A stretch of 64,000 nucleotides of DNA from Weeksellaceae bacterium. Its GTDB lineage: Bacteria; Bacteroidota; Bacteroidia; Flavobacteriales; Weeksellaceae. The notes under the pieces are model-generated. The model saw nothing but the letters and a program-made list of their open reading frames with translations, did not search any database and was not told the origin of the DNA. The position numbers and the translations under genes are program-made. The stretch is from contig JAKLPS010000022.1 of the NCBI GenBank assembly GCA_022013695.1, positions 3,809-67,808 of the forward strand, given 5' to 3'. Positions 7,918 to 60,982 of this stretch are shown here, piece by piece (the first letter of the stretch is position 1; every line of letters begins with the position of its first letter).

Positions 7918-7992
7918 TATTTTTACATTAAGATTTTCGAAAAGCAAAAATACTGCTTTAAATTTTGAATCAAGGATTTTAAAATAAAAATT

Positions 7993-8784
7993 ATGCAGAC
8001 ACAGAAAGTTATAAATCACATCGTCAACTGGCTAAAGGATTATGCAAGCAACGCAAAAGTAAACGGCTTCATAATAGGCGTTTCCGGAGGGATAGATTCT
8101 GCCGTGGTTTCTACTTTGGCTGCAAAAACAGGGCTTAAAACCTTGGTTTTGGAGATGCCCATCCGCCAAAAAGCGGATCAGGTGGACAGAGCGCAGGATC
8201 ACATCGATTTTTTGAAAGCTAATTTCCCGAATGTCGAAGGTTTCACTGTGGATCTCACACCCGTTTTCGAAAGTTTTGAAAAAGTGGTGGATGATTATAA
8301 GGAAGGCGCCTGGAGCAAAAATCTGGCGCTTGCCAATACCAGATCGCGTTTCCGAATGGTAACGCTTTATTATTATGGACAGCTCAATGGACTTTTGGTT
8401 ACAGGAACCGGAAATAAAGTGGAAGATTTCGGAATAGGCTTCTACACCAAATACGGCGATGGCGGCGTAGACATCTCGCCTATTGCCGATCTGTACAAGA
8501 CTCAGATTTACGAAATTGCCAAAGAACTTAACATCTTGGAAAGCATTCAAAAAGCTGCTCCTACAGATGGGCTTTGGGATGCCGACAAAACGGATGAAGA
8601 CCAAATCGGTGCCAGCTATCCCGAACTCGAATGGGCAATGGAACAGCAAAAAAAAGGGAAAACCCCGGCAGATTTCGACGGAAGACCAAAAGAGGTGCTG
8701 GAAATCTATCTGAAATTCCACAATGCCACGCAGCACAAGATGAATCCGATCCCAATATGTGAAATTCCCGAAGATTTGAAATAA
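7993..8784 (+). CDS. nadE: ammonia-dependent NAD+ synthetase
   Basis: 263 aa with GVSGGIDSAV, the SGGxDS PP-loop motif. Confidence 0.9.
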   Translation: MQTQKVINHIVNWLKDYASNAKVNGFIIGVSGGIDSAVVSTLAAKTGLKTLVLEMPIRQKADQVDRAQDHIDFLKANFPNVEGFTVDLTPVFESFEKVVDDYKEGAWSKNLALANTRSRFRMVTLYYYGQLNGLLVTGTGNKVEDFGIGFYTKYGDGGVDISPIADLYKTQIYEIAKELNILESIQKAAPTDGLWDADKTDEDQIGASYPELEWAMEQQKKGKTPADFDGRPKEVLEIYLKFHNATQHKMNPIPICEIPEDLK

Positions 8785-20553: not shown

Positions 20554-23091
20554 TTAGTAATTAAGAGATAAGCCTACGCCCCATCCCATATCACTATCAT
20601 AATGTGTACGAATGCCAACATTTTTATTGATAATATATTTTAGTTCTGTCATATATTCCATATCGGTGTTGACCATAAAAGCTGCTCTCAATCTTTTTGT
20701 AATCGGAATATCTTCACGCATTAAAGAAAGACGTACAATTCCATCGTGATAGACTTCTGCCTGAAAGTTCACTAACATTGGCAAAGTGTACATAAAACCT
20801 AAACTAATGGCTCTACGTGTATCTTTTTCATTTTTCTGTCCAAATAAATTGGTTTCGTGTTCATCCATACCCATTTTACGGTAGCGCCAGTCGAAACCGA
20901 TGAATGGCATAAACCATTGCATTTTACCAATATATCTTCCTAAATGAGTTTCTATCTCATAGCCGTGCATATCATTATAACCTAAACGCCATTCTGTACC
21001 TAAGCTCCATCTTGAGTTCTGAAGCATTGCATCACCATCATTCCCATTGCTCGCAAAATCATTTTGTGCCATAAAATGAGGCATATTGCTTTCTCTTTGC
21101 AACATATTATATGCTTGTTTCTTGTCAGGCAAATTTGGATTTTGATAATCGTCAACCGCAAATACCCTGTTCATTCCTGACATCATATGATAAAGGATGT
21201 GACAGTGGAAAAACCAATCTCCTTCTTCGTTTGCTAAAAACTCAATAGTGTCAGTTTCCATTGGCATTATATCTAAAACATTTTTAAGGGGAGATTTTTC
21301 ACCTTTGCCATTAATAACTCTAAAATCAAAGCCGTGCAAGTGCATCGGGTGTCGCATCATTGAGTTATTATGAATGGTAATTCGTAGAATTTCTCCTTTT
21401 TTTACAGGTATTTTATCAACTTCTGAAAGTATTTTATTATCCATACTCCACACATAACGGTTCATATTTCCTGTAAGGGTAAATTTCAATTCTTTTACTG
21501 GAGCATCTTTAGGAAGTTCCGTATTGGAAGGAGATTGTAACATTGCATAATTTAGCGTTTTGATTTCTCCCAAAGCATTTGCATTGTAACGATTGGGATC
21601 ATTATCCATATTCATATTGTGCTGACTATGGTCTTCTTTTGGTTTAGCATCTCCAGTAATCTCAGGATACATTACCACATTCATATCCATTTGGTTCAGG
21701 CTCATTTTCATTCCCATATCGTCCAAATCCCCATTCATTTTCATCATATCGTTCATCATTTTCATTCCCTCAAAATATTTCAATCTTGGGAGCGGCGATA
21801 TTAACTGCTTGATACCATTGCCTACAAAATAGCTAGCCGATTGTGTTCGGTCTTCGGTTGTGGCTAAAAATTCATAAGCAACACCATCTTCAGGAATTGT
21901 GACAACAATATCGTACGTTTCGGACACTGCAATAATTAATCTATCGACCTCTACTGGTTCTACATCATTACCATCATTGGCTACTACAGTAATTTTACCT
22001 CCGGCGTACCGCAACCAAAAGTAAGAAGATGCCCCCCCATTTGATATTCGCAACCGCACTTTATCGCCTGCTTTCAGTGTTTTGCCATCAACTGTTTTTA
22101 AGTCGGTAGCATTATTTCCGTTGATTAATATTTTATCGTAATACACATCGCTAACATCCATTGCCAACATACGTTTCCATTCGTTAGTTACTTTTGTTTT
22201 GAAATGACCTTCTCTGATAGCTTCTGCGTAAGATTGTGTAGCATTTTTTTTGATAGCCGCCCAATCATTGGCGTTATGTAACATCCGATTAATGTTATTG
22301 GGATTGAGGTTTGTCCACTCGCTTAAAATGATGGGTACAGTAGGCAAATCATCTATTCCTTCTCTAAAAGTTTTATCATCCTCACGCTTTTTCATTACAA
22401 AACTACCATACATACCAATCTGCTCCTGCAAACCAGAATGTGAGTGATACCAGTGCGTGCCATGTTGGATAATCGGAAAACGATAGGTATAAGTATCGCC
22501 CGCCTTAATTGGTTTTTGTGTAAGCCAAGGCACACCATCCTCTTTATTGGGTAAAAAAACACCATGCCAATGCAGTGATGTACTTTCTTTTAATTGATTA
22601 TGTACGACAATTTCGGCTGTATCGCCTTCTGTAAAAGTGAGTGCAGGCATAGGTATTTGACCATTTACGGCAATAGCTCTCTTTTCTTTACCTGCGTAGT
22701 TTACTAGTGTATCTGTTACATATAATTCGTATCGAACTGTTTTTGGAGGTTTTGTGTTTACAATTCTTTTTACGGGTTGAGGCTTTTCTTTTGGCATAGA
22801 CATATTGTTCATTTTGTCCACCTTTTTCGGCTGCTCTTTTGGGGGCATCTGCATTTCATCATTTTTTTTGTTTGATGACTGCTTTACCGTTTTAGCCTTT
22901 TCTTTTATCAATTTCATACCACACTTTGGGCAGTTGCCTGGTTTTGTGGCGTGGATTTCGGGATGCATCGAGCAAGTATAAGTTGCCTGTTGAACCTGTT
23001 CTTTTTTACTCATATCCATACCTTTCATATCCTGTGATTGTGCAAAGGTGTACGTTGCAACGATGAATATTATTAATGTTATCTTTTTCAT
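20554..23091 (-). CDS. multicopper oxidase fused to an N-terminal Cys-motif metal-binding module and a C-terminal CopB-like beta-barrel segment
   Basis: 845 aa. YTCSMHPEIHATKPGNCPKCGMKL sits near the N-terminus. The MCO copper ligands are HWHGV, HWYHSH, HPMHLHG and HCHILYHMMSGM. There is a Met/His-rich linker. The final ~200 aa show an alternating beta pattern ending in GLSLNY. Confidence 0.85.
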   Translation of the reverse strand: MKKITLIIFIVATYTFAQSQDMKGMDMSKKEQVQQATYTCSMHPEIHATKPGNCPKCGMKLIKEKAKTVKQSSNKKNDEMQMPPKEQPKKVDKMNNMSMPKEKPQPVKRIVNTKPPKTVRYELYVTDTLVNYAGKEKRAIAVNGQIPMPALTFTEGDTAEIVVHNQLKESTSLHWHGVFLPNKEDGVPWLTQKPIKAGDTYTYRFPIIQHGTHWYHSHSGLQEQIGMYGSFVMKKREDDKTFREGIDDLPTVPIILSEWTNLNPNNINRMLHNANDWAAIKKNATQSYAEAIREGHFKTKVTNEWKRMLAMDVSDVYYDKILINGNNATDLKTVDGKTLKAGDKVRLRISNGGASSYFWLRYAGGKITVVANDGNDVEPVEVDRLIIAVSETYDIVVTIPEDGVAYEFLATTEDRTQSASYFVGNGIKQLISPLPRLKYFEGMKMMNDMMKMNGDLDDMGMKMSLNQMDMNVVMYPEITGDAKPKEDHSQHNMNMDNDPNRYNANALGEIKTLNYAMLQSPSNTELPKDAPVKELKFTLTGNMNRYVWSMDNKILSEVDKIPVKKGEILRITIHNNSMMRHPMHLHGFDFRVINGKGEKSPLKNVLDIMPMETDTIEFLANEEGDWFFHCHILYHMMSGMNRVFAVDDYQNPNLPDKKQAYNMLQRESNMPHFMAQNDFASNGNDGDAMLQNSRWSLGTEWRLGYNDMHGYEIETHLGRYIGKMQWFMPFIGFDWRYRKMGMDEHETNLFGQKNEKDTRRAISLGFMYTLPMLVNFQAEVYHDGIVRLSLMREDIPITKRLRAAFMVNTDMEYMTELKYIINKNVGIRTHYDSDMGWGVGLSLNY

Positions 23092-23092
23092 T

Positions 23093-25132
23093 TTATTTTT
23101 TTACTTTTAAAAAACTTGCATTGATTGCAACTACGACTGTGCTAACCGTCATTAAAACCGCACCTGCGGCTGGGCTTAACAATATGCCTTGCTTGTACAA
23201 AACACCTGCTGCCAAAGGCAATGCGATTACATTGTAACCCGTAGCCCAAATTAAATTCTGTATCATTTTACGATAGGTGGCTTTGCCAAATAAAATAAGA
23301 TTTACAACATCCTTAGGGTTACTGTTCACTAAAACAATACCTGCGGTTTCGGCTGCAATATCACTACCGCTGCCAACTGCTATACCAACATCTGCAATTG
23401 CCAGTGCTGGTGAATCGTTTACGCCATCACCTGTCATAGCTACGAATTCGCCATTGCTTTGCAGGTCTTTTATCTTTTCTAATTTTTGATGTGGTAATAC
23501 TTCGGCAATAAAACTATCCATACCCAAAATATCGCTTACACTTTTTGCTACTTTGTTATTATCACCGGTAAGTAAAATAGATTTGATATTATTTTCTTTC
23601 AAGGTCTTTATTGCTTCGGCAGCTTCAGGACGAATTTCATCTGACAAAGCAATATAACCTGCTAACTCATTATTTACGATTACGAACACAACCGTTTCTG
23701 TATCGTTGGCATTAAAGCCTTCGGGAATTGCTAAATTATTTTCTTTTAAATATCCCGGACTGACTATCAATATTTTTTCGCCTTCAACCGTTGCTTCAAC
23801 TCCTTTGCCTGTTATGGCATTAAAGTTTTCCGTTTCAGGAATGGTGATCGATAGTTCTTTTGCTTTTTGCAAAATGCCTGTTGCAATAGGATGTTCTGAT
23901 TTTTGTTCTAATGCAGACGCAAGGCGAATGATTTCATTTTCATTGAACTCTTTTTGCAGCGATACAATTTTTGACACTTCAAATCTTCCTACAGTTAATG
24001 TTCCTGTCTTGTCAAAAACGATAGTGGTTATTTTTCTTGAATTTTCAAACGCTGTACGATTTTTAATAAGTAAACCATTCTTAGCTGATAATGCTGTTGA
24101 TTTTGCAACAACCAATGGTACTGCCAAACCCAAAGCATGAGGGCAGCAAATAACAATTACGGTTACCATCCTTTCCATTGCAAAAGCCAATGATTGCCCT
24201 GTAAGATACCAATATAAAAATGTGGCAATGCCCGTAACCAATGCTATAATGGTAAGCCATCTTGCTGCTTTGTCTGCTAATAGTTGCGTTTGTGATTTTG
24301 ATTTTTGTGCATCGTCCACCAATTTAATAACCTGTGATAAGTAAGAGTCTTTTGTGGCATGGGAAACGGTAACTTTTATAGAACCGTTGCCATTGATTGC
24401 ACCTGCAATTACTTTATCGCCTTTTACTTTTTGTACTGGTTTGCTTTCACCTGTAAGCATACTTTCGTTCAGATAGCTTTCGCCTTCTAATATTATTCCA
24501 TCGGCTGCCACTTTTTCGCCTGGTTTTACTAAAATAATGTCGTTCTCTTTTAGTGTATCGGTTTTTACATCATGCACCATGTTAGGCATTACCATGTGTG
24601 CATCGGCTGGCATTAACTGCACCAATAATTCTAATTCTTTTGATGCACCTGCAACAGATTTCATTTCTATCCAATGCCCCAAAAGCATGATTAGTATAAG
24701 GGTTGCCAATTCCCAAAAGAAATCCATGCCCTGTAACCCAAACACAATTGCAACGCTGTAGATGTAAGCAACTGTTATGGCGAAGCCGATTAAAAACATC
24801 ATGCCGGGGTTCTTTGCTTTTACTTCGTCAACCAATCCTTTTAAAAATGGAAAGCCTCCATAAAAAAACACAACGGTTGACAATGCAAAGAGTATGTATT
24901 GCGAACCTGCAAACTGCCAATCAACTTTCATAAAATGTTGTATCATGGTTGACAGCATCATGATTGGAATGGTTAGGACAAGCACTACATAAAACCGCTT
25001 TTTAAAATCGGCAATCATCATGGCATGGTGGTTATGTCCTGCCATGCCCATTGCTGGGTTTGCTCCATGCTGCATATTGCTCATTTTATGCCCTGCATGG
25101 GTTTCTTTATTTTCTGTATGTTGATGTTCCAT
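23093..25132 (-). CDS. heavy-metal (copper) translocating P1B-type ATPase with His-rich N-terminus
   Basis: 679 aa. The N-terminus is MEHQHTENKETHAGHKMSNMQHG...GHNHHAMM. Other motifs are the TM motif CPH (VICCPHALG), DKTGTLT and GDGVNDSPAL. Confidence 0.9.
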   Translation of the reverse strand: MEHQHTENKETHAGHKMSNMQHGANPAMGMAGHNHHAMMIADFKKRFYVVLVLTIPIMMLSTMIQHFMKVDWQFAGSQYILFALSTVVFFYGGFPFLKGLVDEVKAKNPGMMFLIGFAITVAYIYSVAIVFGLQGMDFFWELATLILIMLLGHWIEMKSVAGASKELELLVQLMPADAHMVMPNMVHDVKTDTLKENDIILVKPGEKVAADGIILEGESYLNESMLTGESKPVQKVKGDKVIAGAINGNGSIKVTVSHATKDSYLSQVIKLVDDAQKSKSQTQLLADKAARWLTIIALVTGIATFLYWYLTGQSLAFAMERMVTVIVICCPHALGLAVPLVVAKSTALSAKNGLLIKNRTAFENSRKITTIVFDKTGTLTVGRFEVSKIVSLQKEFNENEIIRLASALEQKSEHPIATGILQKAKELSITIPETENFNAITGKGVEATVEGEKILIVSPGYLKENNLAIPEGFNANDTETVVFVIVNNELAGYIALSDEIRPEAAEAIKTLKENNIKSILLTGDNNKVAKSVSDILGMDSFIAEVLPHQKLEKIKDLQSNGEFVAMTGDGVNDSPALAIADVGIAVGSGSDIAAETAGIVLVNSNPKDVVNLILFGKATYRKMIQNLIWATGYNVIALPLAAGVLYKQGILLSPAAGAVLMTVSTVVVAINASFLKVKK

Positions 25133-47052: not shown

Positions 47053-47706
47053 TTAAAAATTCCTTTTATACCGATCCATAATATCCTCAACAATCGCTTT
47101 GTCTGTATTGATGTAGCCTGCAAATGGATTGATGGAATTCCAGAATCCCAATCGGTTTGCTTTCTCCAATCTTAATTTGATGGCCAAAAGCCACAACTTC
47201 AGATTTTTGACATTACCGGAAATATTATGAAGGATTTTGTAGCGGTCTCCTGCAGTAGCCAGATTCAACTCTCCGGATGCGAGAATATCAGATACATCGG
47301 TCACGATCTTTAGACTTTGCTCGTAGGTTTTTTGGGAAGCTTTCACCCCAAAAATTGCGTATTGCGGATGTGCTGATGCTAATTGTCCTACTTGTGCTGA
47401 GTAATTGTAACACTTATTGAGTTCCGAGTAGATCTCCTGCACCTGAATACCATTTTGCAGTGTCCCGGAAACTTCTTTTAAGCCCTTCAGAATTTTATTC
47501 TGAATATCGTTAGCTGCAACCATCTGGGTTCCGACCCATGTCTGGGCATCTTTTAGTTTTGAAGTTTCTTCGATGACCTCATTCTGTTTGGCTTTTAGAT
47601 TTTCAGAATATAGAATCATTGCTGCCGTTACCGTAGGATCGATGTAGGTGTTTTGAGCACACAATAAACTTCCAAATCCTAAAAATAGAATGCTAAACTT
47701 TTTCAT
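47053..47706 (-). CDS. secreted coiled-coil protein (TraI/DUF4141-like?), family member 1
   Basis: 217 aa with a signal peptide, ending in YINTDKAIVEDIMDRYKRNF. Confidence 0.6.
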   Translation of the reverse strand: MKKFSILFLGFGSLLCAQNTYIDPTVTAAMILYSENLKAKQNEVIEETSKLKDAQTWVGTQMVAANDIQNKILKGLKEVSGTLQNGIQVQEIYSELNKCYNYSAQVGQLASAHPQYAIFGVKASQKTYEQSLKIVTDVSDILASGELNLATAGDRYKILHNISGNVKNLKLWLLAIKLRLEKANRLGFWNSINPFAGYINTDKAIVEDIMDRYKRNF

Positions 47707-49513
47707 ATTGTTTTTTATTTATTAATTCTGAAAAACTGATATTTCGGTCTTCTAATTCCTGTGAGATGGTCTTGAAGACATTCTTCCCTTTATGTTCTTT
47801 TTTCATCATTCCGTAAAAGGAATTGATTTTTTGATCCAGTGGATTTTGATATAAATTCACGAGCGATACAAGATTTTCGAGACTGTCTCCGAAGATTTTC
47901 AAATCACCAACTATTCTGCGCAATGCTTCATCATAATTGCCATATTTCTGAACATAGTATTCAACGGCTGACTTTTCCGGTTTTTCTGTGGTATAAGTCA
48001 AATATTGTTCAAGCGAAACTTCATTTCCGTACACTTCTCCTTTTGAACCTCGTTTCAGATAAAACTCCTTGAACCGACTTCGCCCGAATTTATTATTCAG
48101 ATTGTTGATGGTAAAAATCTTGTTTTGCTCTACTTTATTGAGTGAAAGCAATGAAGCGATCTTGTCAAAGTTGTCTTTGAACTTCGTCTGGTCAAGCAAT
48201 ATAAAAGTGTCCGAGTTATTTATTATACTGTCTTTTACGACTGCATTCCCGATAATATCATCCAGTTCCTGAGTAACAACTACCGCTTCTCCCCAAAATT
48301 TCCGTACTGTTTTATATAAATAAAGAATATAACCTCCCATTAATTTACTCGCAATGGCTTTCCACGCTTCTTCTATGATGAGAGCTTTTCTGCGGTCTTT
48401 TCTAAGGCGCATTTTCTGAATAAAAGTGTCCATTATAATCAACGTCACTATTGGAAACAGCTTCGGATTGTCCTTTACGTTATCGATCTCAAAAACAATG
48501 AAAGATTCGTCAAACAGTTTATTATCTGCACTTTCGTTTAAAGTCGTTCCGTACCTTCCGCCTTTGTAAAAATCTTTCAGCACAAATAAAAAGGTGCGCA
48601 GATTGAATTCCTTCTCTATAATGTTGTGTTTTTTATTACTCAGGTAAATAGGAAGAAATTGATCGCAATAATCATAAAACCCATTGAACGAAAGTTCTGT
48701 TACAACCAGCTTTTCTTCCAGTTCTTTTATTTTTCTGATAATGACTTTTCTAAAGGATTCATTCAATTCTTCTGCTGATCTGGATTGCCTGATGATGTCA
48801 TTAGATTTCATTAAAGTCAGCTGCGTCTCATTGTATATTTTCCTTCTTTCTTCATCGTTCAGCGTGTCGTACGCTTCATAGACTTGATAGAAATTGTCAC
48901 TTTCATAATCCGGATTATTGATGTTTTTATCAGGATGATAAAATTTTAATAATTTTCTTCCGGCTTCCTTGATTTCATTAGAACTGGCATCGAATGTAAT
49001 CCCCAGAATGTCATAATAGTTTTGATGTCCTTTGGCTTCATTCTCATATTCTGTGAATAGATCTTCTTCTTGAATGTTATATTTATTGAGATATAAAATA
49101 AGTTCTTCCGAAGTTTTATTTTGATACCACTCTTGTCCTGAGTTAAAATACTGATGATAATACGACATCAACACATTGTCTAATATGGACTTTTGTGCTG
49201 ATGACATTGAAGAGTCAGGACCTTGCCAAATCAGGAAGATCAGGTTGGTTAAAAATTCGATTTTTTCGATATTGAACTCTTTCTTATCCATCAGAAAAGG
49301 ATTCATTGTGATCGGTTTTTCTTCGGTGTACTGAATGTATCTTCCTCCTTTGTATTTACAAGTTCCTGAATAAGAATCTCCTGTATCAACAATGACTACA
49401 TCATAATTGTAGGTCAGATACTGCTCGATGATATTATTCATTAAAAAACTCTTGCCTGACCCACTGGGTCCTAAAACAAACTTATTCCTGTTGTTTATTC
49501 TTCCTGTTTTCAT
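47693..49513 (-). CDS. traG: TraG (VirB4-type conjugation ATPase), C-terminal part, carrying an inserted J-domain
   Basis: GRINNRNKFVLGPSGSGKSF is the Walker A motif and ALIIEEAWKA is Walker B-like. The insert NYYDILGI...KFYHPDKN...EAYDTLNDEERRKIYNE lies at 48827-49021. The 32 codons upstream (49514-49606) are in frame and look like coding sequence. Confidence 0.85.
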   Translation of the reverse strand: MKTGRINNRNKFVLGPSGSGKSFLMNNIIEQYLTYNYDVVIVDTGDSYSGTCKYKGGRYIQYTEEKPITMNPFLMDKKEFNIEKIEFLTNLIFLIWQGPDSSMSSAQKSILDNVLMSYYHQYFNSGQEWYQNKTSEELILYLNKYNIQEEDLFTEYENEAKGHQNYYDILGITFDASSNEIKEAGRKLLKFYHPDKNINNPDYESDNFYQVYEAYDTLNDEERRKIYNETQLTLMKSNDIIRQSRSAEELNESFRKVIIRKIKELEEKLVVTELSFNGFYDYCDQFLPIYLSNKKHNIIEKEFNLRTFLFVLKDFYKGGRYGTTLNESADNKLFDESFIVFEIDNVKDNPKLFPIVTLIIMDTFIQKMRLRKDRRKALIIEEAWKAIASKLMGGYILYLYKTVRKFWGEAVVVTQELDDIIGNAVVKDSIINNSDTFILLDQTKFKDNFDKIASLLSLNKVEQNKIFTINNLNNKFGRSRFKEFYLKRGSKGEVYGNEVSLEQYLTYTTEKPEKSAVEYYVQKYGNYDEALRRIVGDLKIFGDSLENLVSLVNLYQNPLDQKINSFYGMMKKEHKGKNVFKTISQELEDRNISFSELINKKQYEKV

Positions 49514-49606: not shown

Positions 49607-50758
49607 TTAAAAAAAAAAACACAAGGCCGCTTCGCTTGTCGTCATAAATAGATCGTATTCCCTAAGTTCTGTTCCATTGCCCGGAATGGCTGATCGCCAG
49701 AGTTCTAACTGGTTGTAGGCATTTTTAGAAACAATAATTCCTTTCGTGAAAAGCTTGTTTTCAATCATCGACTGGATATTTTCCATTTTCTCCAATGTGT
49801 GTGCTGAAAAAAGGATGGAAAAATGAGCATTGACGACGAGCTGTCCATCGGTTGCAATGTTATGAAGCAGGGTCTGAATTTCATCTGCTATAATCGCGTT
49901 GGACGGAGAATTGTTCGCCGCGCCTTCGTGTTTTTTCTTTTTTTTATCAAGCTCCCTTTGCTGTTGTGCCTGAAGGGGAATGGTAATGATCTGATTGTAG
50001 ACAATGGTCTCGTAGTCTTCCAGTTCATTGATGAAACTAAAATTGTCAACCGCCGTCTCAGCTGCAGCTCCGTTACCTCCTAAAACTGAGTAAGGCTCAA
50101 TTTCTGAAGGCAGATCAATGTTTTCTACGTCAACATAGGCAATGTTTTTCACAAACCTATTTCCGATCTGCAAAAATTCGTTGGTGCTTTTTATATTATC
50201 AAAAGTTGGAGTTTCTGTAAACTGCATCGACAGAACTCCCGAAATGTAGTAATCAAAATCTTTCTCAAATAAAAACTCAGGTTCACAATTATTCTGTTTC
50301 AAAAGCATCAATACTTTCTGGCACTTATCCCGTAGTTCCTTATAACTTTTATCCGAAAAATGATAATGCTTAGTTTTCTTTTTCAGTTTGTCATCGATAA
50401 TATCCGTGAAGAATAGCACGGTTTCGATGGTTTTAAAAAGCCTGCCCTCAAAATGTTCTGAATATTTTTGCTGTAGAAACTGATTGGACTGTTCTGCGGT
50501 GTATCTTTTTTTAGAAAAAATGTCGAGCTTCTGGACAATTCTTCCTTCACCAATAATCGAGACTACCTGATTTAAGACCGTATGAAAATGGAGGTACGTA
50601 TCCGGATCTGCTGAATACTGCTCTACAATATTTTTTATCCTAATACCAATAATAGGATTTCCATACTGTCCGAAAAGAACATCGAAATCCCAATTGAAAT
50701 CTTTTGCATAATCATACCCGATAAAAGGGATGTTAAATGCTTGTTTTTCCTTTTTCAT
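49607..50758 (-). CDS. traG: TraG (VirB4-type conjugation ATPase), N-terminal part, ended by an in-frame TAA
   Basis: 383 aa ending in ...TSEAALCFFF then stop. The stop at 49607-49609 is in the same frame as the downstream ATPase ORF. Confidence 0.8.
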   Translation of the reverse strand: MKKEKQAFNIPFIGYDYAKDFNWDFDVLFGQYGNPIIGIRIKNIVEQYSADPDTYLHFHTVLNQVVSIIGEGRIVQKLDIFSKKRYTAEQSNQFLQQKYSEHFEGRLFKTIETVLFFTDIIDDKLKKKTKHYHFSDKSYKELRDKCQKVLMLLKQNNCEPEFLFEKDFDYYISGVLSMQFTETPTFDNIKSTNEFLQIGNRFVKNIAYVDVENIDLPSEIEPYSVLGGNGAAAETAVDNFSFINELEDYETIVYNQIITIPLQAQQQRELDKKKKKHEGAANNSPSNAIIADEIQTLLHNIATDGQLVVNAHFSILFSAHTLEKMENIQSMIENKLFTKGIIVSKNAYNQLELWRSAIPGNGTELREYDLFMTTSEAALCFFF

Positions 50759-55227: not shown

Positions 55228-56319
55228 CTATGGTAATTCCCAATTTGGTACACCATTCACGCTCTTTAAAATATAAGTTCCGGTAGCTGGTGGCGGTGGA
55301 ATTGTTTCTGATGCAAAGCCAAATGTACCATCCGCTTTGGCAACTACTTTTTTTGTATAGGTTGCATCTCCGTCTGCATTGGGCATTTGGGAAGGTGTAA
55401 CGCTTAGCTTGCCATTGATATTTAACCATCTCTCAGAAAAATCCCCCGAAATCAAAGCAAATTTGTAATCCGTATAATTGTTCGTGATACTATCCCAAAA
55501 GCTGGTTGAACTTGTTGTAACGGGGGTTGAATGTATAGCTAGTTTATTACTTACGCTTCTGTTTCCTGTGGCCGGGCTACCAGCGCCAATGCCAATGAAT
55601 ATATTATTAGACCCTGTTCGGTTTCCTGTCCCGGACAGATAGCCAATAGAGATGTTATCATTTCCAGAAGTGATGTAGGACATAGCTCCCGGACCAATTC
55701 CAATATTTCTGTTTCCTGAAATCACTCCATTTAAGATTCCATTCAATGCCGAAACTCCTGCTCCATAATTAAGTTTACCTGTAATTTCGCCTTGAGACAT
55801 TGCATAAGAGCTGGCTGAATTTCCTTTTCCTGAAGTTATATTAGAATCTGTCGCAAAAATAGAATTGTAGTCACCCGTGATTGGACTTCTGGAAATGCCC
55901 AGTATGTAATTTTCTTTTTCATCAAAATTTAGATGCAAATTGTTCCTGACAATAAGTTCAACCGTCGAAGTGTTGCCCTTGAGTGCAACTGTATTTAGTG
56001 GGTCTTCTTGTATAAATGACTTCCATAGATCACCGTCAAAATAATACAACCCGGACTTTGTGATATGAATGACCTGACCGGATAAGTTTGTGGCCGCAGA
56101 GGTTACAAAAACGACAGCTCCTTTTTTTGCGGACGAATACGTTTTTGCTGCGAGTTGGTTTCCTGTAATCCTTGGAGGAATAATCCCGTCATAATGATTG
56201 GTATCATTTGGTTTCCCTACAACTTCTAAAGTAGCCTCGGGCGTCTGGGTGTTGATGCCAATCTGTCCCTGAATTGATATTGCTATGAAAGGCAGAAAAA
56301 AATAAATTAATGTTTTCAT
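55228..56319 (-). CDS. secreted fibre/adhesin-like protein, paralog A
   Basis: 363 aa with a signal peptide. Its N-module is shared with the next gene. The G/N/S-rich repeat region reads NIGIGPGAMSYITSGNDNISIGYLSGTGNRTGSNNIFIGIGAG. Confidence 0.6.
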   Translation of the reverse strand: MKTLIYFFLPFIAISIQGQIGINTQTPEATLEVVGKPNDTNHYDGIIPPRITGNQLAAKTYSSAKKGAVVFVTSAATNLSGQVIHITKSGLYYFDGDLWKSFIQEDPLNTVALKGNTSTVELIVRNNLHLNFDEKENYILGISRSPITGDYNSIFATDSNITSGKGNSASSYAMSQGEITGKLNYGAGVSALNGILNGVISGNRNIGIGPGAMSYITSGNDNISIGYLSGTGNRTGSNNIFIGIGAGSPATGNRSVSNKLAIHSTPVTTSSTSFWDSITNNYTDYKFALISGDFSERWLNINGKLSVTPSQMPNADGDATYTKKVVAKADGTFGFASETIPPPPATGTYILKSVNGVPNWELP

Positions 56320-56402: not shown

Positions 56403-57197
56403 CTATTGTAGATAGGGTCTGATCCAATTTGAGTAGCCCTGAACTTCCCCATAAGTATAATATGATGTTGATATTGCGCCTAAAGAAGCTTGAGGAATTT
56501 TTATGGTAAAATTTTCAAGCAAGGCAGGAATAAGCATTGTTGAATTCTCAGGATGTAAAAAAACAATCTGGTTAGGAATATACCCTATGTCACTAAAGAT
56601 ATCCGGAATATTTATAAGTGCGTATGAAGTAATTGGTTCTGAATCAGTCGACCTGAATATTTGAAATTTTACATTGACGATACCATTAACTTTTCTGAAT
56701 GATACGGATCCTTTTAGTCCTCCATAATTTTTGGTCCCAATGGTATAGTATTTAGAAGCGGTTAAATAATTATTTGTATTTCCATTATAATTAACCGGAG
56801 CGGACCATGTAGAAGTTGCACTAAGAGACGCAGTGCTGGTATGGTCAAATGTTAATAGAATTCTATATTCAGTGGGTTGCTTTTCTTTTGAAAATGTTTG
56901 CCACAAATTGCCATCAAAATAATATAATCCGGGTTCAGTTATTTGAATGACTTGTCCTGATAAATTGGTAGCCGGAGATGTAACAAAGACGACAGTTCCT
57001 TTTTTTGAAGATGAATATGTCTTTGCAGCGAGTTGGTTTCCTGTAATTCGTGGAGGAATAATTCCGTCATAATGATTGACATCATTTGGTTTTCCTACCA
57101 CTTCTAAAGTCGCCTCTGGAGTTTCGGTATTGATGCCGACCTGACCTTGGATTGATACTACTATTAATGCCAGTAGAAGATGACTCAATTTTTTCAT
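56403..57197 (-). CDS. secreted protein, paralog B (same N-module, unrelated C-terminus)
   Basis: 264 aa. The N-terminal ~100 aa are nearly the same as in paralog A: GINTETPEATLEVVGKPNDVNHYDGIIPPRITGNQLAAKTYSS...LYYFDG. Confidence 0.6.
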   Translation of the reverse strand: MKKLSHLLLALIVVSIQGQVGINTETPEATLEVVGKPNDVNHYDGIIPPRITGNQLAAKTYSSSKKGTVVFVTSPATNLSGQVIQITEPGLYYFDGNLWQTFSKEKQPTEYRILLTFDHTSTASLSATSTWSAPVNYNGNTNNYLTASKYYTIGTKNYGGLKGSVSFRKVNGIVNVKFQIFRSTDSEPITSYALINIPDIFSDIGYIPNQIVFLHPENSTMLIPALLENFTIKIPQASLGAISTSYYTYGEVQGYSNWIRPYLQ

Positions 57198-57380: not shown

Positions 57381-57391
57381 AAATATTGATA

Positions 57392-57718
57392 ATGGGAGCA
57401 ACTAAGACCGAACATTTTACAGATAAGCAAAATCAAATTGCAATAATTGCAAAAGCATTGGGGCATCCTGCGCGAATAGCGATTATTGAGTATTTGATGA
57501 AAGTTAATGAGTGTATTTGTGGTGACATCGTGAATGAATTACCGTTAGCTCAACCCACCGTCTCTCAGCATTTGAAAGAACTGAAAAATGCAGGGATTAT
57601 AAAAGGTAACATTTCCGGAAACGCTATCTGCTATTGTATAGACGAAAAGACTATCGAAATTCTAAACACTTATTTTTCCGCAATAGTACAAACTGTTACC
57701 AAAGTAAAATGCTGTTAA
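57392..57718 (+). CDS. arsR: ArsR/SmtB-family metalloregulator
   Basis: ALGHPARIAIIEYLMKVNECICGDIVNELPLAQPTVSQHLKELKNAGII contains the wHTH and the CxC metal site. I prefer the ATG at 57392 over the TTG at 57386. Confidence 0.85.
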   Translation: MGATKTEHFTDKQNQIAIIAKALGHPARIAIIEYLMKVNECICGDIVNELPLAQPTVSQHLKELKNAGIIKGNISGNAICYCIDEKTIEILNTYFSAIVQTVTKVKCC

Positions 57719-57774: not shown

Positions 57775-58248
57775 ATGAAATTATCAGAAGTAAAACAAAT
57801 TTTGCCAACATTGGAAAATGTTGAATTTCAATTAGAAAATGGAACTTATGTTCCAGAACATTTTCACGTTACAGAGGTGGGAATGATTACCAAAAACTTT
57901 ATTGATTGTGGCGGTGTCATCCGTTCAGAGAAGGTTGTGAACTTTCAGCTTTGGAATGCAGATGATTTTGAACATCGTTTGAAGCCTAACAAATTGCTCA
58001 ACATTATCAAACTTTCTGAAGATAAATTAGGAATCGAAGATTTTGATATTGAAGTTGAATATCAAAGTGAGACAATCGGTAAATATGATTTAGAATTTAA
58101 CGGGAAAACATTTATTCTAAAAAATAAGACTACAGCTTGTTTAGCTCAGGACGCTTGTGGAATTCCTACGGAAAAAGAAAAGAAAAACTTATCCGAACTT
58201 AATGTAAATCAAAACAATTCTTGCACACCAGGTGGCGGATGTTGCTAA
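57775..58248 (+). CDS. DUF6428-like protein with Cys-rich C-terminus
   Basis: The internal ATG at 57775 gives MKLSEVKQILPTLENVEFQLENGTYVPEHFHVTEVG... and the protein ends in NSCTPGGGCC. Confidence 0.6.
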   Translation: MKLSEVKQILPTLENVEFQLENGTYVPEHFHVTEVGMITKNFIDCGGVIRSEKVVNFQLWNADDFEHRLKPNKLLNIIKLSEDKLGIEDFDIEVEYQSETIGKYDLEFNGKTFILKNKTTACLAQDACGIPTEKEKKNLSELNVNQNNSCTPGGGCC

Positions 58249-58258
58249 TTAAATTGCT

Positions 58259-58750
58259 ATGGAAATAAAGCCGATTACCAAAGATAATTTTTCAGAGTTG
58301 TTAGAAATCTATGGTCAGGGATTAGCTACTAATATTGCCACTTTTCAAAATGACTTGCCAATATGGCAAGAGTGGGATAAAGGACACCTTAATTTCTGCA
58401 GAATCAGTATATATGAAAATAACGAAATGCTTGGTTGGACTGCATTATCTCCTGTCTCCAGCAGATGTGTTTATTCAGGCGTAGCAGAAGTCAGTGTTTA
58501 TGTAGCAACAGATGCAAGAGGAAAAGGTGTTGGTAAAATATTGCTGAATGAATTGATTGAGCAGAGTGAGTCAAATGAAATATGGACATTACAATCCGGG
58601 ATATTTTCAGAAAACCAAGGCAGTATAAAACTACACGAGAGATGTGGTTTTAGAATCGTTGGCTACAGGGAAAAAATTGGAAAGAAGAATGGGGTTTGGA
58701 AGGACAATATATTGATGGAGTACAGAAGTAAGATTGTCGGAATAGATTAA
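58259..58750 (+). CDS. GNAT N-acetyltransferase (PAT/ArsN1-like)
   Basis: 163 aa with DARGKGVGKILL (acetyl-CoA motif), located in the ars operon. Confidence 0.7.
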   Translation: MEIKPITKDNFSELLEIYGQGLATNIATFQNDLPIWQEWDKGHLNFCRISIYENNEMLGWTALSPVSSRCVYSGVAEVSVYVATDARGKGVGKILLNELIEQSESNEIWTLQSGIFSENQGSIKLHERCGFRIVGYREKIGKKNGVWKDNILMEYRSKIVGID

Positions 58751-58777: not shown

Positions 58778-59551
58778 ATGAAAATTGCATTATTCAGCGA
58801 CATTCACGCTAATCTCCCTGCATTAGAAGCATTCTTTGCAGATGTTGAAAAAAGAAATCCCGACAGCATTTATTGTTTGGGAGATTTAGTTGGTTACAAT
58901 ATTTGGCCAAACGAAGTGGTCAATGAAATCCGTAAAAGAAAAATACCAACTATTGCTGGCAACTACGATTTTGGCATTGGGAGAATGAGTAATGAATGCG
59001 GTTGCGCCTACAAAACAGACGCTGAGAAGGACAACGGAAACATTTCCATTTCTTTTACTAATTCGTTGATGAAAGATGACGAACGTGCTTACCTGCGTAC
59101 CCTTCCAGCACATATAAAAGTAGAATTTCAATTGAATGAAGACAAGCTAAACCTGCTTTTGGTACACGGGAGTCCCAGAAAAATAAATGAATATCTTTTC
59201 GAAGACCGTGAAGAAAAAAGTATGCTCCGTATTATGGAACAGGCTGACGCTGACATTATGTGTTTCGGACATACCCACAAGCCTTATCACAGAGTTTTAA
59301 ATTCGGGTATTGATGGACAGGATCATTTTCGTCACGCCGTAAATATCGGTTCGGTTGGGAAGCCGAAAGACAATGATATCAGAGGTGGTTATGTGATGTT
59401 GACAGTTGATGAAAACAGTTCTGTCTTGAACAAAGAAAGCATCAGTGTAGAATTTATCCGTTTTGACTATGACTTTGAAAAGGCAGCAAAGGCAGTGGAA
59501 GACAGCCCTCTTCCAAACGAGTATGCAGAAAATCTAAGACGTGGCTATTAA
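58778..59551 (+). CDS. metallophosphoesterase (calcineurin-like)
   Basis: 257 aa with FSDIHAN, GDLVGYN, GNYD and GHTHKP motifs. Confidence 0.85.
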   Translation: MKIALFSDIHANLPALEAFFADVEKRNPDSIYCLGDLVGYNIWPNEVVNEIRKRKIPTIAGNYDFGIGRMSNECGCAYKTDAEKDNGNISISFTNSLMKDDERAYLRTLPAHIKVEFQLNEDKLNLLLVHGSPRKINEYLFEDREEKSMLRIMEQADADIMCFGHTHKPYHRVLNSGIDGQDHFRHAVNIGSVGKPKDNDIRGGYVMLTVDENSSVLNKESISVEFIRFDYDFEKAAKAVEDSPLPNEYAENLRRGY

Positions 59552-59569: not shown

Positions 59570-59947
59570 ATGGAACTTTTAAAAGATTTATATTATTCTA
59601 AAGAACATACTTGGGTTCGTATTGAGAACAAAATTGCAACTGTCGGTATTACACCATTTGCTCAAAAGGAATTGGGAGAAATCGTATATGTTGACTTACC
59701 GAATGTTAATCATAACTTCAAACAAGACGAAGTATTTGGTTCTGTAGAAGCCATTAAAACTGTCAGCGACCTATTTATGCCTCTTTCAGGGAAAATAATT
59801 GAAACCAATGAGCAACTTTTAAAAGAGCCAACGCTTGTAAATTCTAATCCATTTGATAATGGCTGGATGGTGAAAATTGAAATTGAAGACCTAAGAGAAA
59901 CTGAAAATTTATTAACAGCGGAACAATACGCTCAACTACATAATTAG
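59570..59947 (+). CDS. glycine-cleavage H-protein-like lipoyl carrier
   Basis: 125 aa. YSKEHTWVR...ATVGITPFAQKELGEIVYVDLP...FGSVEAIKTVSDLFMPLSGKIIE retains the lipoyl-lysine position (EAIK). Confidence 0.8.
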   Translation: MELLKDLYYSKEHTWVRIENKIATVGITPFAQKELGEIVYVDLPNVNHNFKQDEVFGSVEAIKTVSDLFMPLSGKIIETNEQLLKEPTLVNSNPFDNGWMVKIEIEDLRETENLLTAEQYAQLHN

Positions 59948-59950
59948 AAG

Positions 59951-60982
59951 ATGCAACCAAAATTAAAATTCCTCGACCGCTTTCTTACCCTATGGATTTT
60001 TTTAGCAATGCTTTTGGGCGTTGGGTTAGGATATTTCTTTCCTAATATTTCTACTGTCACAAATTCTTTGTCTGTCGGAACAACTAATATTCCCCTAGCA
60101 ATAGGCTTAATTTTAATGATGTATCCGCCTTTGGCAAAAGTGGATTATACTCTATTACCAATGGCTTTTAAAGACAAAAAAGTAATGTCGGTATCATTAC
60201 TACTCAATTGGATTATCAGCCCTATTTTAATGTTTGTATTAGCTATCATTTTTCTAAGAGATGAGCCAGACTATATGATTGGTCTAATTTTGATCGGTCT
60301 TGCAAGATGTATTGCAATGGTAATTGTCTGGAACGATTTAGCAAAAGGTAATCGGGAGTACGCCGCTCTGCTAATCGCATTAAACAGTATTTTCCAATTG
60401 GTATTTTATAGTTTTTATGTTTGGCTTTTCATAAATGTACTACCACAAAAACTAGGATTAGGAAATTTTAACGTTGCTGTACCAATGAAAGATGTTGCCG
60501 AGAGTGTATTCATTTATTTAGGAATCCCATTTATTGCAGGATTTGTGAGCCGTTACTTCTTGATTAAATTAAAAGGAAAAGAGTGGTTCAATAGAAAATT
60601 CATTCCAGCTATTTCACCTATTACTTTGTATGCTTTGCTGTTTACCATAGTATTGATGTTCAGTTTGAAGGGAGACAAAATTTTAGAGTTACCAATGGAC
60701 GTTGTTAAAGTTGCCATTCCATTAGTAATATACTTTGTTCTTACATTCTTCATCAGCTTTTTCATTAGTAAGGCATTGAAAGTACCTTACGACAAAAATG
60801 CATCGATTGCATTTACAGCCACTGGAAATAATTTCGAATTAGCTATTGCCGTAGCTATAGCAGTTTTTGGAATCCATTCTTCACAAGCATTTGTTGGGGT
60901 CATTGGCCCTCTTGTGGAAGTGCCTGTTTTGATTTTATTGGTCAGGGTTAGTTTATGGTTAAAAAGAAAATACTATTCTTAA
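59951..60982 (+). CDS. acr3: ACR3-family arsenite efflux permease
   Basis: 343 aa and polytopic, with [11 protein letters not shown] (conserved Cys) and the [10 protein letters not shown] segment. Confidence 0.9.

Follow-up and report, generated by a model that had tools for sequence, protein, structure and literature searches.

A GcvH paralog of Bacteroidota arsenic resistance operons and its metallophosphoesterase partner

Lipoyl carriers that resemble the H-protein of the glycine cleavage system but do not serve glycine cleavage include GcvH-L, encoded in the SirTM/macrodomain operon, and LbpA of the sHdr sulfur oxidation pathway. In the Lpd-DlaT-AhpD-AhpC relay of Mycobacterium tuberculosis, a lipoyl protein donates electrons to a thiol-based enzyme. 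Arsenate reductases are partnered by thioredoxin or glutaredoxin, and some arsenic resistance (ars) operons embed trx/trxR genes. Here we describe a gcvH-like gene (59570..59947, + strand) of an ars operon from a Weeksellaceae bacterium (Bacteroidota), located in a stretch of 64,000 nt (NCBI GenBank assembly GCA_022013695.1, contig JAKLPS010000022.1, positions 3,809 to 67,808 of the forward strand), which is referred to as the window. This gene and its counterparts in other ars operons, termed ars-type gcvH, encode a distinct, conserved, ars-specific clade of H-protein paralogs, whose constant partner is a metallophosphoesterase (MPE) and which are probably dedicated lipoyl (dithiol) helpers in arsenic detoxification.

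The ars-type protein shares with housekeeping GcvH (PF01597, TIGR00527) the fold family, the length, and the lipoyl-lysine hairpin, whereas it differs in its separate ars-only clade, in the replacement of Glu14, in the loss of about one-half of the negative charge, in the absence of nearby gcvT and gcvP, and in its residence on mobile elements. GcvH-L, LbpA, and the families TIGR03077 (“not_gcvH”) and NF045810 are alike in that an H-protein paralog acts as the dedicated lipoyl carrier of a non-glycine pathway, but the window protein scores far below the cut-offs of the two latter families (68 bits vs. 144 for TIGR03077 and 34 vs. 150 for NF045810) and is much nearer to genuine GcvH; no genes for a dedicated lipoate ligase, sirtuin, macrodomain, or Hdr proteins were present in the annotated neighborhoods. 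The likeness to thioredoxin and glutaredoxin concerns the proposed logic only, namely, an operon-encoded dithiol carrier that would recycle the disulfide of a reductase. The ars-type protein has the H-protein fold and not the thioredoxin fold, the window copy contains zero cysteines and hence no CxxC motif, and the lipoyl cofactor would provide its dithiol, with recharging by NADH and dihydrolipoamide dehydrogenase rather than by NADPH and thioredoxin reductase or by glutathione. The M. tuberculosis relay follows the same order (NADH, Lpd, protein-bound lipoyl group, thiol-disulfide enzyme), although its carrier is the lipoyl domain of the pyruvate dehydrogenase E2 component and its acceptor is a peroxiredoxin system. 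ArsD, which serves ArsA as an As(III) metallochaperone, is also a small operon-encoded protein with a possible As(III)-binding dithiol and an adjoining transporter gene, whereas ars-type GcvH has no sequence or fold relation to it and lacks cysteine pairs; ArsA was found neither in the window operon nor in the related loci annotated.

The ars-type GcvH clade

The gene has an ATG start and a TAG stop and encodes a protein of 125 aa with a Pfam GCV_H match far beyond chance (E = 7e-42); the sequence-only reading had rightly recognized both the GcvH-like open reading frame (ORF) and its lipoylation context, GSVEAIKTVSD. The NCBIfam models TIGR00527 (144 bits, cut-off 115.85) and NF002270 (156 bits, cut-off 117) are passed as well. 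The nearest solved structures are those of H-proteins (1zko, 9e-36), and the pea H-protein (1hpc/1dxm) aligns in register, residues 3-122 on 3-122, so that Lys63 (codon 59756-59758) corresponds to pea Lys63 and is identified as the lipoyl lysine, and residue 14 corresponds to the Glu14 position of pea and Escherichia coli. The AlphaFold2 model of the window protein was poor (pLDDT 67). The window protein is 51-60% identical to the Bacteroidota housekeeping copies.

For comparison, 190 GcvH loci were collected from the window, a one-genome-per-species scan, a metagenome scan, and the contexts of exact proteins, and were annotated by tblastn with the window operon proteins and with additional ArsC, ArsM, MIP-family aquaporin, and second metallophosphoesterase (MPE2) queries. 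Seventy-five of these loci are ars-linked, whereas the remaining 115 have no nearby ars gene (in 83 of the latter, the flanks on both sides reach 2 kb or more). In the genome scan, all nine loci at 61% or higher identity to the query are ars-linked, and none of the 71 loci at 60% or lower identity is. The ars-linked proteins comprise 48 distinct sequences with pairwise identities as low as 47%; that of Chitinophaga horti, for example, shares 52% identity with its window counterpart. They form a single bipartition in neighbor-joining trees, recovered in 196/200 bootstraps with 81 sequences and in 158/200 with 149 unique sequences. Both expectations of the sequence-only reading, i.e., the co-occurrence of such genes with ars genes and the separation of the operon copy from ordinary gcvH, are thereby borne out, and ars-type GcvH is shown to be a distinct, conserved, and ars-specific clade.

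Near-identical proteins occur in the Chryseobacterium group, Kaistella, Cloacibacterium, and Epilithonimonas, and proteins at 68-80% identity in Chitinophagaceae, Empedobacter, Flavobacterium, Sphingobacterium, Terrimonas, Emticicia, and Ignavibacteriales. The name ‘MULTISPECIES [Bacteroidota]’ is given to one entry. The plasmids of PLSDB contain no ars-type GcvH, all matches being below 60% identity. Gene fusions were looked for in 150 whole-family representatives; none was informative, and those seen were unrelated or artefactual (e.g., GcvH-NAD synthase).

The clade is marked by the loss of Glu14. All 115 non-ars copies have Glu at this position, whereas none of the 75 ars-linked copies does: Thr is found in 71 of them, Val, Ala, and Ile in one each, and the site is deleted in one, so that ars context and Glu14 loss show a perfect two-way association in the sample (74/74 vs. 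0/115). In the window protein, Thr14 is encoded by codon 59609-59611 and Glu12 is retained. In the E. coli H-protein, the nitrogen of the aminomethyl group on the loaded arm is hydrogen-bonded by Glu-12 together with Glu-14; these charged bonds lock the aminomethyl-lipoate arm in a protective cavity until its release by the T-protein (PMC7733448). The net charge is also changed, from -19 in the non-ars proteins to -10 in the ars-type ones, i.e., about one-half of the negative charge is gone. Pro44 was considered as a further functional signature and rejected: it splits the ars-type proteins from the Bacteroidota housekeeping ones, yet it is the common state in the family as a whole (118/150 representatives).

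The lipoyl site, by contrast with residue 14, is retained. Lys63 is kept in 75/75 ars-linked copies, and the block F56-G57-x-V59-E60-A61-x-K63-T64-V65-S66-D67-L68-F69-M70-P71 is invariant across six divergent ars-type members. This lipoylation hairpin (F56-P71) is the best-conserved block of the protein and is the same as in the Bacteroidota housekeeping GcvH, VEA(I/V)KTVSDLFMP. Given the intact Lys63 hairpin and the missing Glu14, the ars-type protein is predicted to be a lipoyl carrier freed from the glycine-derived aminomethyl load; the simplest reading is that host enzymes still lipoylate it, while carriage of the aminomethyl group may no longer be needed.

The company of a glycine cleavage system is lacking as well. 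As the sequence-only reading had noticed, neither gcvT nor gcvP is found among the window ORFs scanned, a scan that did not cover small ORFs exhaustively. The only two window ORFs big enough for an unsplit GcvP encode a helicase/methylase and a multicopper oxidase, and the 20 further large ORFs scanned are unrelated; tblastn revealed no additional GcvH-like sequence within the window. Because the Glu14 feature fails and gcvT and gcvP are missing nearby, we file the protein, by sequence a member of the H-protein family, as a GcvH paralog and not as a functional GcvH. Every source names it ‘glycine cleavage system protein GcvH’; the ars-type gene is mis-annotated as housekeeping GcvH.

The median pairwise dN/dS ratio of ars-type gcvH is 0.12 and the highest is 0.34, whereas MPE and acr3 of these cassettes gave ratios of 0.04 and 0.05, respectively. 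Purifying selection on the gene is clear, although it evolves faster than these two neighbors. It is disrupted in two type strains, Epilithonimonas hispanica KCTC 22104 (locus L002, 8001-8375), where codon 74 is changed from GGG to the nonsense codon TGA, and Epilithonimonas pallida DSM 18015 (locus L004, ~7960-8330), where a 7-nt deletion affects codons 13-15. The flanking MPE and acr3 genes are intact at both loci and 98% identical to those of the window. It follows that these Epilithonimonas hosts cannot use the ars-type gene as their H-protein.

These data bear on the reading that an ordinary housekeeping gcvH entered the ars operon by chance, or that the gene is a decaying passenger. The equivalog cut-off of NCBIfam and the uniform GcvH annotation speak for it, and so do the two pseudogenized copies. 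Against it stand the strict association of ars context with Glu14 loss, the monophyly of the ars-linked copies, and purifying selection; moreover, the gene resides on conjugative transposons and in other mobile contexts common to many genera and Ignavibacteriales, and it survives at least 14 operon rearrangements. We find this reading hardly credible and, in our view, already refuted by the clade, Glu14, selection, and mobility data.

The metallophosphoesterase and the exporters

In the window, ars-type gcvH lies between the MPE gene (MPE1; 58778..59551, +), encoding a calcineurin-like protein of 257 aa (Pfam Metallophos_2, PF12850, 5.5e-21; PF00149, 2.3e-16), and acr3, encoding an arsenite efflux permease (59951..60982, +; TIGR00832, 447 bits). 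The gap between MPE1 and gcvH is 18 nt, and the acr3 ATG starts 3 nt past the gcvH stop. The sequence-only reading had placed the gene correctly and took acr3 for its partner and the MPE for a bystander; the comparison of loci reverses these roles. Partner counts were made for 43 distinct ars-type sequences, 36 of which have enough flank and 28 of which are flanked by 3 kb or more on both sides. MPE is located directly upstream of gcvH, on the same strand and within 350 nt, in 32/36 loci. The other four cases are an arsN gene between MPE and gcvH (one locus), an MPE at a distance of 461-481 nt (two loci, with a small intervening ORF in L115 and degraded MPE fragments in L154), and the order GcvH-MIP-MPE (one locus). 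Directly downstream of gcvH, Acr3 is encoded in 21 of the 36 loci, MIP in two, and MPE2 in one, with another or no gene in the remaining 12. Among the 28 loci with long flanks, MPE and ArsR are present in all, Acr3 in 24, and MIP in three, and no locus in the set counted combines GcvH and an exporter without MPE. The constant partner of ars-type GcvH is therefore the MPE, not acr3.

The pair is retained within one operon in at least 14 architectures, whereas the exporter varies in type and position. The gcvH gene precedes acr3 in arsR-DUF6428-(arsN)-MPE1-GcvH-acr3, while acr3 is upstream in arsR-arsM-acr3-MPE1-GcvH, arsR-DUF6428-acr3-MPE1-GcvH, and acr3-MPE1-MPE2-GcvH. MPE2 stands next to GcvH in MPE1-GcvH-MPE2 and MPE1-MPE2-GcvH; MIP is encoded in arsR-MPE1-GcvH-DUF2490-MIP-flavin monooxygenase, arsR-DUF6428-methyltransferase-MPE1-arsN-GcvH-MIP, and MIP-MPE1-GcvH; and a phosphate transporter is encoded in GcvH-PstSCA. 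Distance-matrix correlations lean weakly to MPE, being r = 0.78 for GcvH-MPE (partial 0.58) and r = 0.72 for GcvH-Acr3 (partial 0.39). The dependence is not mutual: among nine MPE1 homologs sampled with their neighbors disregarded, four are accompanied by GcvH, four by a Cys-less MPE2 and an ArsC of the low-molecular-weight phosphatase (LMWP) type, and one by none of these. For MPE, GcvH is thus an accessory that may or may not be present.

The variation in exporters bears on the suggestion that the reduced lipoyl dithiol is an acceptor, chaperone, or buffer for As(III), which would capture the metalloid as it is released by the reductase or enters the cell, shield pyruvate dehydrogenase and 2-oxoglutarate dehydrogenase, and pass its load to the exporter. 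The chemistry is established, as dihydrolipoyl groups bind As(III) tightly, Lys63 is strictly conserved, and such a role is compatible with a position adjacent to an As(III)-producing enzyme; it could also coexist with that of a reductant. The hand-off to Acr3 proposed in the sequence-only reading retains some footing in the 21/36 loci with Acr3 next downstream and in the 3-nt spacing in the window, and is weakened by the variable type and position of the exporter. No exporter is located beside GcvH in ~40% of the distinct loci, and Acr3 is often upstream of MPE, GcvH then being the last gene of the operon. MIP, which sometimes replaces Acr3, is a passive pore and an unlikely client of a chaperone. 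No single type of transporter is tracked by GcvH, unlike ArsD with ArsA, and the lack of any locus with GcvH and an exporter but no MPE points the same way. As a sink, the protein would act stoichiometrically, so that lasting resistance would be impossible. Overall, a function as As(III) acceptor appears rather unlikely, if conceivable.

Several of the accompanying genes were observed repeatedly. A MIP-family aquaporin takes the place of Acr3 beside MPE1 and GcvH in L147 (7383-9824), L189 (5677-6315), L195 (6671-7306), and L117 (5433-6203), and operons of this type sometimes add a DUF2490 outer-membrane-like protein and an ArsO-like flavin monooxygenase. In L154 (7447-10285) and L163, ars-type gcvH is directly followed by genes of a phosphate ABC transporter of the PstS/PstC/PstA kind; this arrangement suggests that genes for phosphate/arsenate discrimination are carried on the same island. 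In L004 (5562-7116) and L132, DUF6428 is separated from MPE1 by inserted genes for DoxX and a chromate transporter (ChrA). A small ORF of ~131-147 aa, lipoprotein-like and without a Pfam match, adjoins ars-type gcvH in several metagenomic loci, namely, L115 (6551-6988), L124 (532-975), and L145 (722-1117).

What the MPE may do is suggested by Car1 of Rufibacter tibetensis, a metallophosphoesterase As(V) reductase for which Cys74 and Cys76 are given as essential in a 2025 account (PMC12124457, citing Shen et al., 2024). MPE1 of the window contains Cys74-Gly-Cys76 (codons 58997-58999 and 59003-59005), and the motif CGCAY starts at position 74 in 115 of 120 close MPE homologs, where it is carried by a 13-residue insert. 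The family is very large and highly conserved in Bacteroidota, the top 120 matches being 82-95% identical. In Mucilaginibacter, two ‘metallophosphoesterase’ genes of the ars operons are listed as uncharacterized (genome announcement, PMC10652896). By its calcineurin-like domain and by the numbering of its two cysteines, as far as the account of Car1 goes, the window MPE is a Car1-like candidate arsenate reductase. The simple GcvH cassettes, including that of the window, contain neither ArsC (of the glutaredoxin or LMWP type) nor a thioredoxin gene; the MPE would thus be their only plausible arsenate reductase and GcvH their only plausible thiol-redox component.

MPE2 is ~50% identical to MPE1 and lacks the 13-residue insert bearing Cys74 and Cys76. 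Its gene directly follows MPE1 in many ars operons, e.g., in L102 (6777-7490), L103 (6777-7511), L194 (4778-5515), and L196 (5789-6529). LMWP-type ArsC was observed only in MPE2-containing operons of the sample, and MPE2 without ArsC was also seen (L110, L177). A mutual exclusion of GcvH and ArsC, which coincide in 1/28 loci, was considered and dropped, as L113 and L196/L197 carry MPE1-MPE2-GcvH together with ArsC; the occurrence of ArsC follows MPE2 and not the absence of GcvH.

Possible role as a reductant

Our tentative preference, held with reservations, is that ars-type GcvH is a neofunctionalized H-protein serving as the lipoyl accessory subunit of a Car1-type arsenate reduction module, in which it would re-reduce the disulfide of the Car1-like enzyme. 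We infer that Lys63 is lipoylated by the host lipoylation enzymes and that the MPE is an active ortholog of Car1. Dihydrolipoamide dehydrogenase would use NADH to place two electrons onto the lipoyl group, and the swinging dihydrolipoyl arm would re-reduce the Cys74-Cys76 disulfide formed in the MPE at each turnover of As(V) to As(III); alternatively, the arm might attack the enzyme-arsenic intermediate directly. As(III) would then leave the cell via Acr3 or, in other versions of the operon, via the MIP channel. Ars-type GcvH would fill the role that thioredoxin and glutaredoxin have for the classical ArsC enzymes. The energetics speak for this scheme, E0′ being ~ -0.29 V for lipoamide vs. >0 V for As(V)/As(III), as does the precedent of the M. 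tuberculosis relay. Slightly more doubtful, in our estimate, is the generalization to a third electron route to arsenate reductases, which would lead from NADH through dihydrolipoamide dehydrogenase and the mobile-element-borne ars-type GcvH to the MPE-type reductase. We know of no mention of a lipoyl protein as a partner of Car1.

Several points weigh against the proposed reductant. The reduced lipoyl group is a classic high-affinity target of As(III), and the reductant could therefore be poisoned by the product of the reaction. Car1 is reportedly coupled to the thioredoxin cycle via a surface Cys74-Cys76 disulfide, in which case GcvH is not needed in principle. The window MPE is Car1-like by its domain and cysteine numbering. 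GcvH is missing beside five of the nine sampled MPE1 homologs, and the two pseudogenes demonstrate that it is dispensable in some hosts, at least in both Epilithonimonas type strains. Loss of Glu14 is not specific to the ars clade, since this residue is absent from 29/150 representatives of the whole family (121/150 have it). Finally, MPE and GcvH may have stayed adjacent partly because a single mobile cassette was inherited, and not because their pairing was selected independently.

Two other functions were weighed. The gene could provide a spare lipoyl protein or a relay, i.e., an extra, arsenic-induced H-protein that would donate or accept lipoyl groups or replace carriers poisoned under As(III) attack. 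H-proteins are known as intermediates of lipoyl relay in some bacteria, e.g., Bacillus subtilis, the lipoylation loop of the ars-type protein is the same as that of the Bacteroidota housekeeping GcvH, and Glu14 loss would be harmless in such a function. Yet the obligate association with MPE (28/28) would be left unexplained, as would the many surface changes and the halved negative charge, and the Pfam-annotated neighborhoods contain no gene for lipoate ligase, lipoyl transferase, or lipoyl synthase; we consider a spare carrier or relay improbable. The tight adjacency of the two genes would also suit a GcvH that is the substrate or regulatory target of the MPE, the latter hydrolyzing a modification on the lipoyl protein, in the manner of the GcvH-L/SirTM/macrodomain system; in the GcvH-L operon of Staphylococcus aureus and Streptococcus pyogenes, a dedicated GcvH-like protein is reversibly modified. 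The ars operons, however, encode no modifying enzyme (sirtuin, ligase, or transferase), and the arsenate reductase activity reported for the MPE family, as far as described in the account cited above, depends on the same two cysteines. This last interpretation is very improbable.

Operon, mobile element, and wider meaning

The window operon has the order arsR-DUF6428-arsN-MPE-gcvH-acr3, with all genes on the same strand and tightly spaced; promoter and terminator scans within the operon yielded nothing exceeding background. The first gene, arsR (57386..57718, +), encodes an ArsR/SmtB repressor (Pfam HTH_5, 2e-12; NCBIfam NF033788, 68 bits) with a CICGD motif (Cys43, Cys45) and a Cys-Cys pair at the C-terminus. 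It is followed by the gene of a 157-aa DUF6428 protein (57775..58248, +; PF20001, 2e-67), which is the second gene, after arsR, in most of the related cassettes and architectures (e.g., L081, 6717-7181). This protein ends in CTPGGGCC, and the terminal cluster of Cys150, Cys156, and Cys157 suggests As(III) binding as a predicted property; it may correspond to ‘MrArsU’, whose gene is listed behind arsR for the P3 operons of Mucilaginibacter (PMC10652896). The third gene (58259..58750, +) encodes a GNAT acetyltransferase related to ArsN1 (NF040503 ArsN1a, 1e-37; its score of 129 bits is below the cut-off of 170 bits) and is an optional member of the cassette, being present in only some architectures.

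The first ~19 kb of the window are chromosomal core (GldB, RibD, RNase Y), and a Bacteroidetes-type conjugative transposon is encoded at ~20-54 kb, with a relaxase, the TraG P-loop ATPase, TraM, and a coupling protein. The ars operon thus belongs to the cargo of the mobile element. The same element carries copper-resistance genes (20554-25132, -) for a multicopper oxidase with a heavy-metal-binding domain and a P-type ATPase. The conjugative ATPase TraG (VirB4-like) is represented by two ORFs (47693-49513 and 49607-50758, -), the downstream part of which also matches a DnaJ domain at residues 165-228 (1.3e-17); this arrangement could be due to splitting of the gene, to an insertion, or to a frameshift. 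The stretch that separates the relaxase genes from the ars operon encodes two adjacent secreted proteins (55228-56319 and 56403-57197, -). Their ~100 N-terminal residues are nearly identical (QGQxGINTxTPEATLEVVGKPND...) and their C-terminal parts differ; the protein encoded at 55228-56319 has no Pfam match.

The lipoyl protein of these ars operons is a real and conserved component. The sequence-only reading knew of no such role, and no paper on an association of gcvH with ars genes was found in the searchable literature, the primary Car1 paper lying outside the search. The ars operons are among the best-catalogued detoxification systems, yet ars-type gcvH has no ars name. The rule ‘residue 14 not Glu plus ars context’ would permit the re-annotation of thousands of mislabeled genes. 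If As(III) binding proved to be the function, ars-type GcvH would be the first lipoyl-based metalloid chaperone. Should the protein serve Car1-type reductases as their redox partner, it would define a new electron pathway into arsenate reduction and add a fourth example of an H-protein paralog put to use beyond glycine cleavage, and the functioning of compact cassettes that lack ArsC and thioredoxin genes would be explained. On this reductant reading, arsenic detoxification would have recruited as a working part the very cofactor that arsenite classically attacks.

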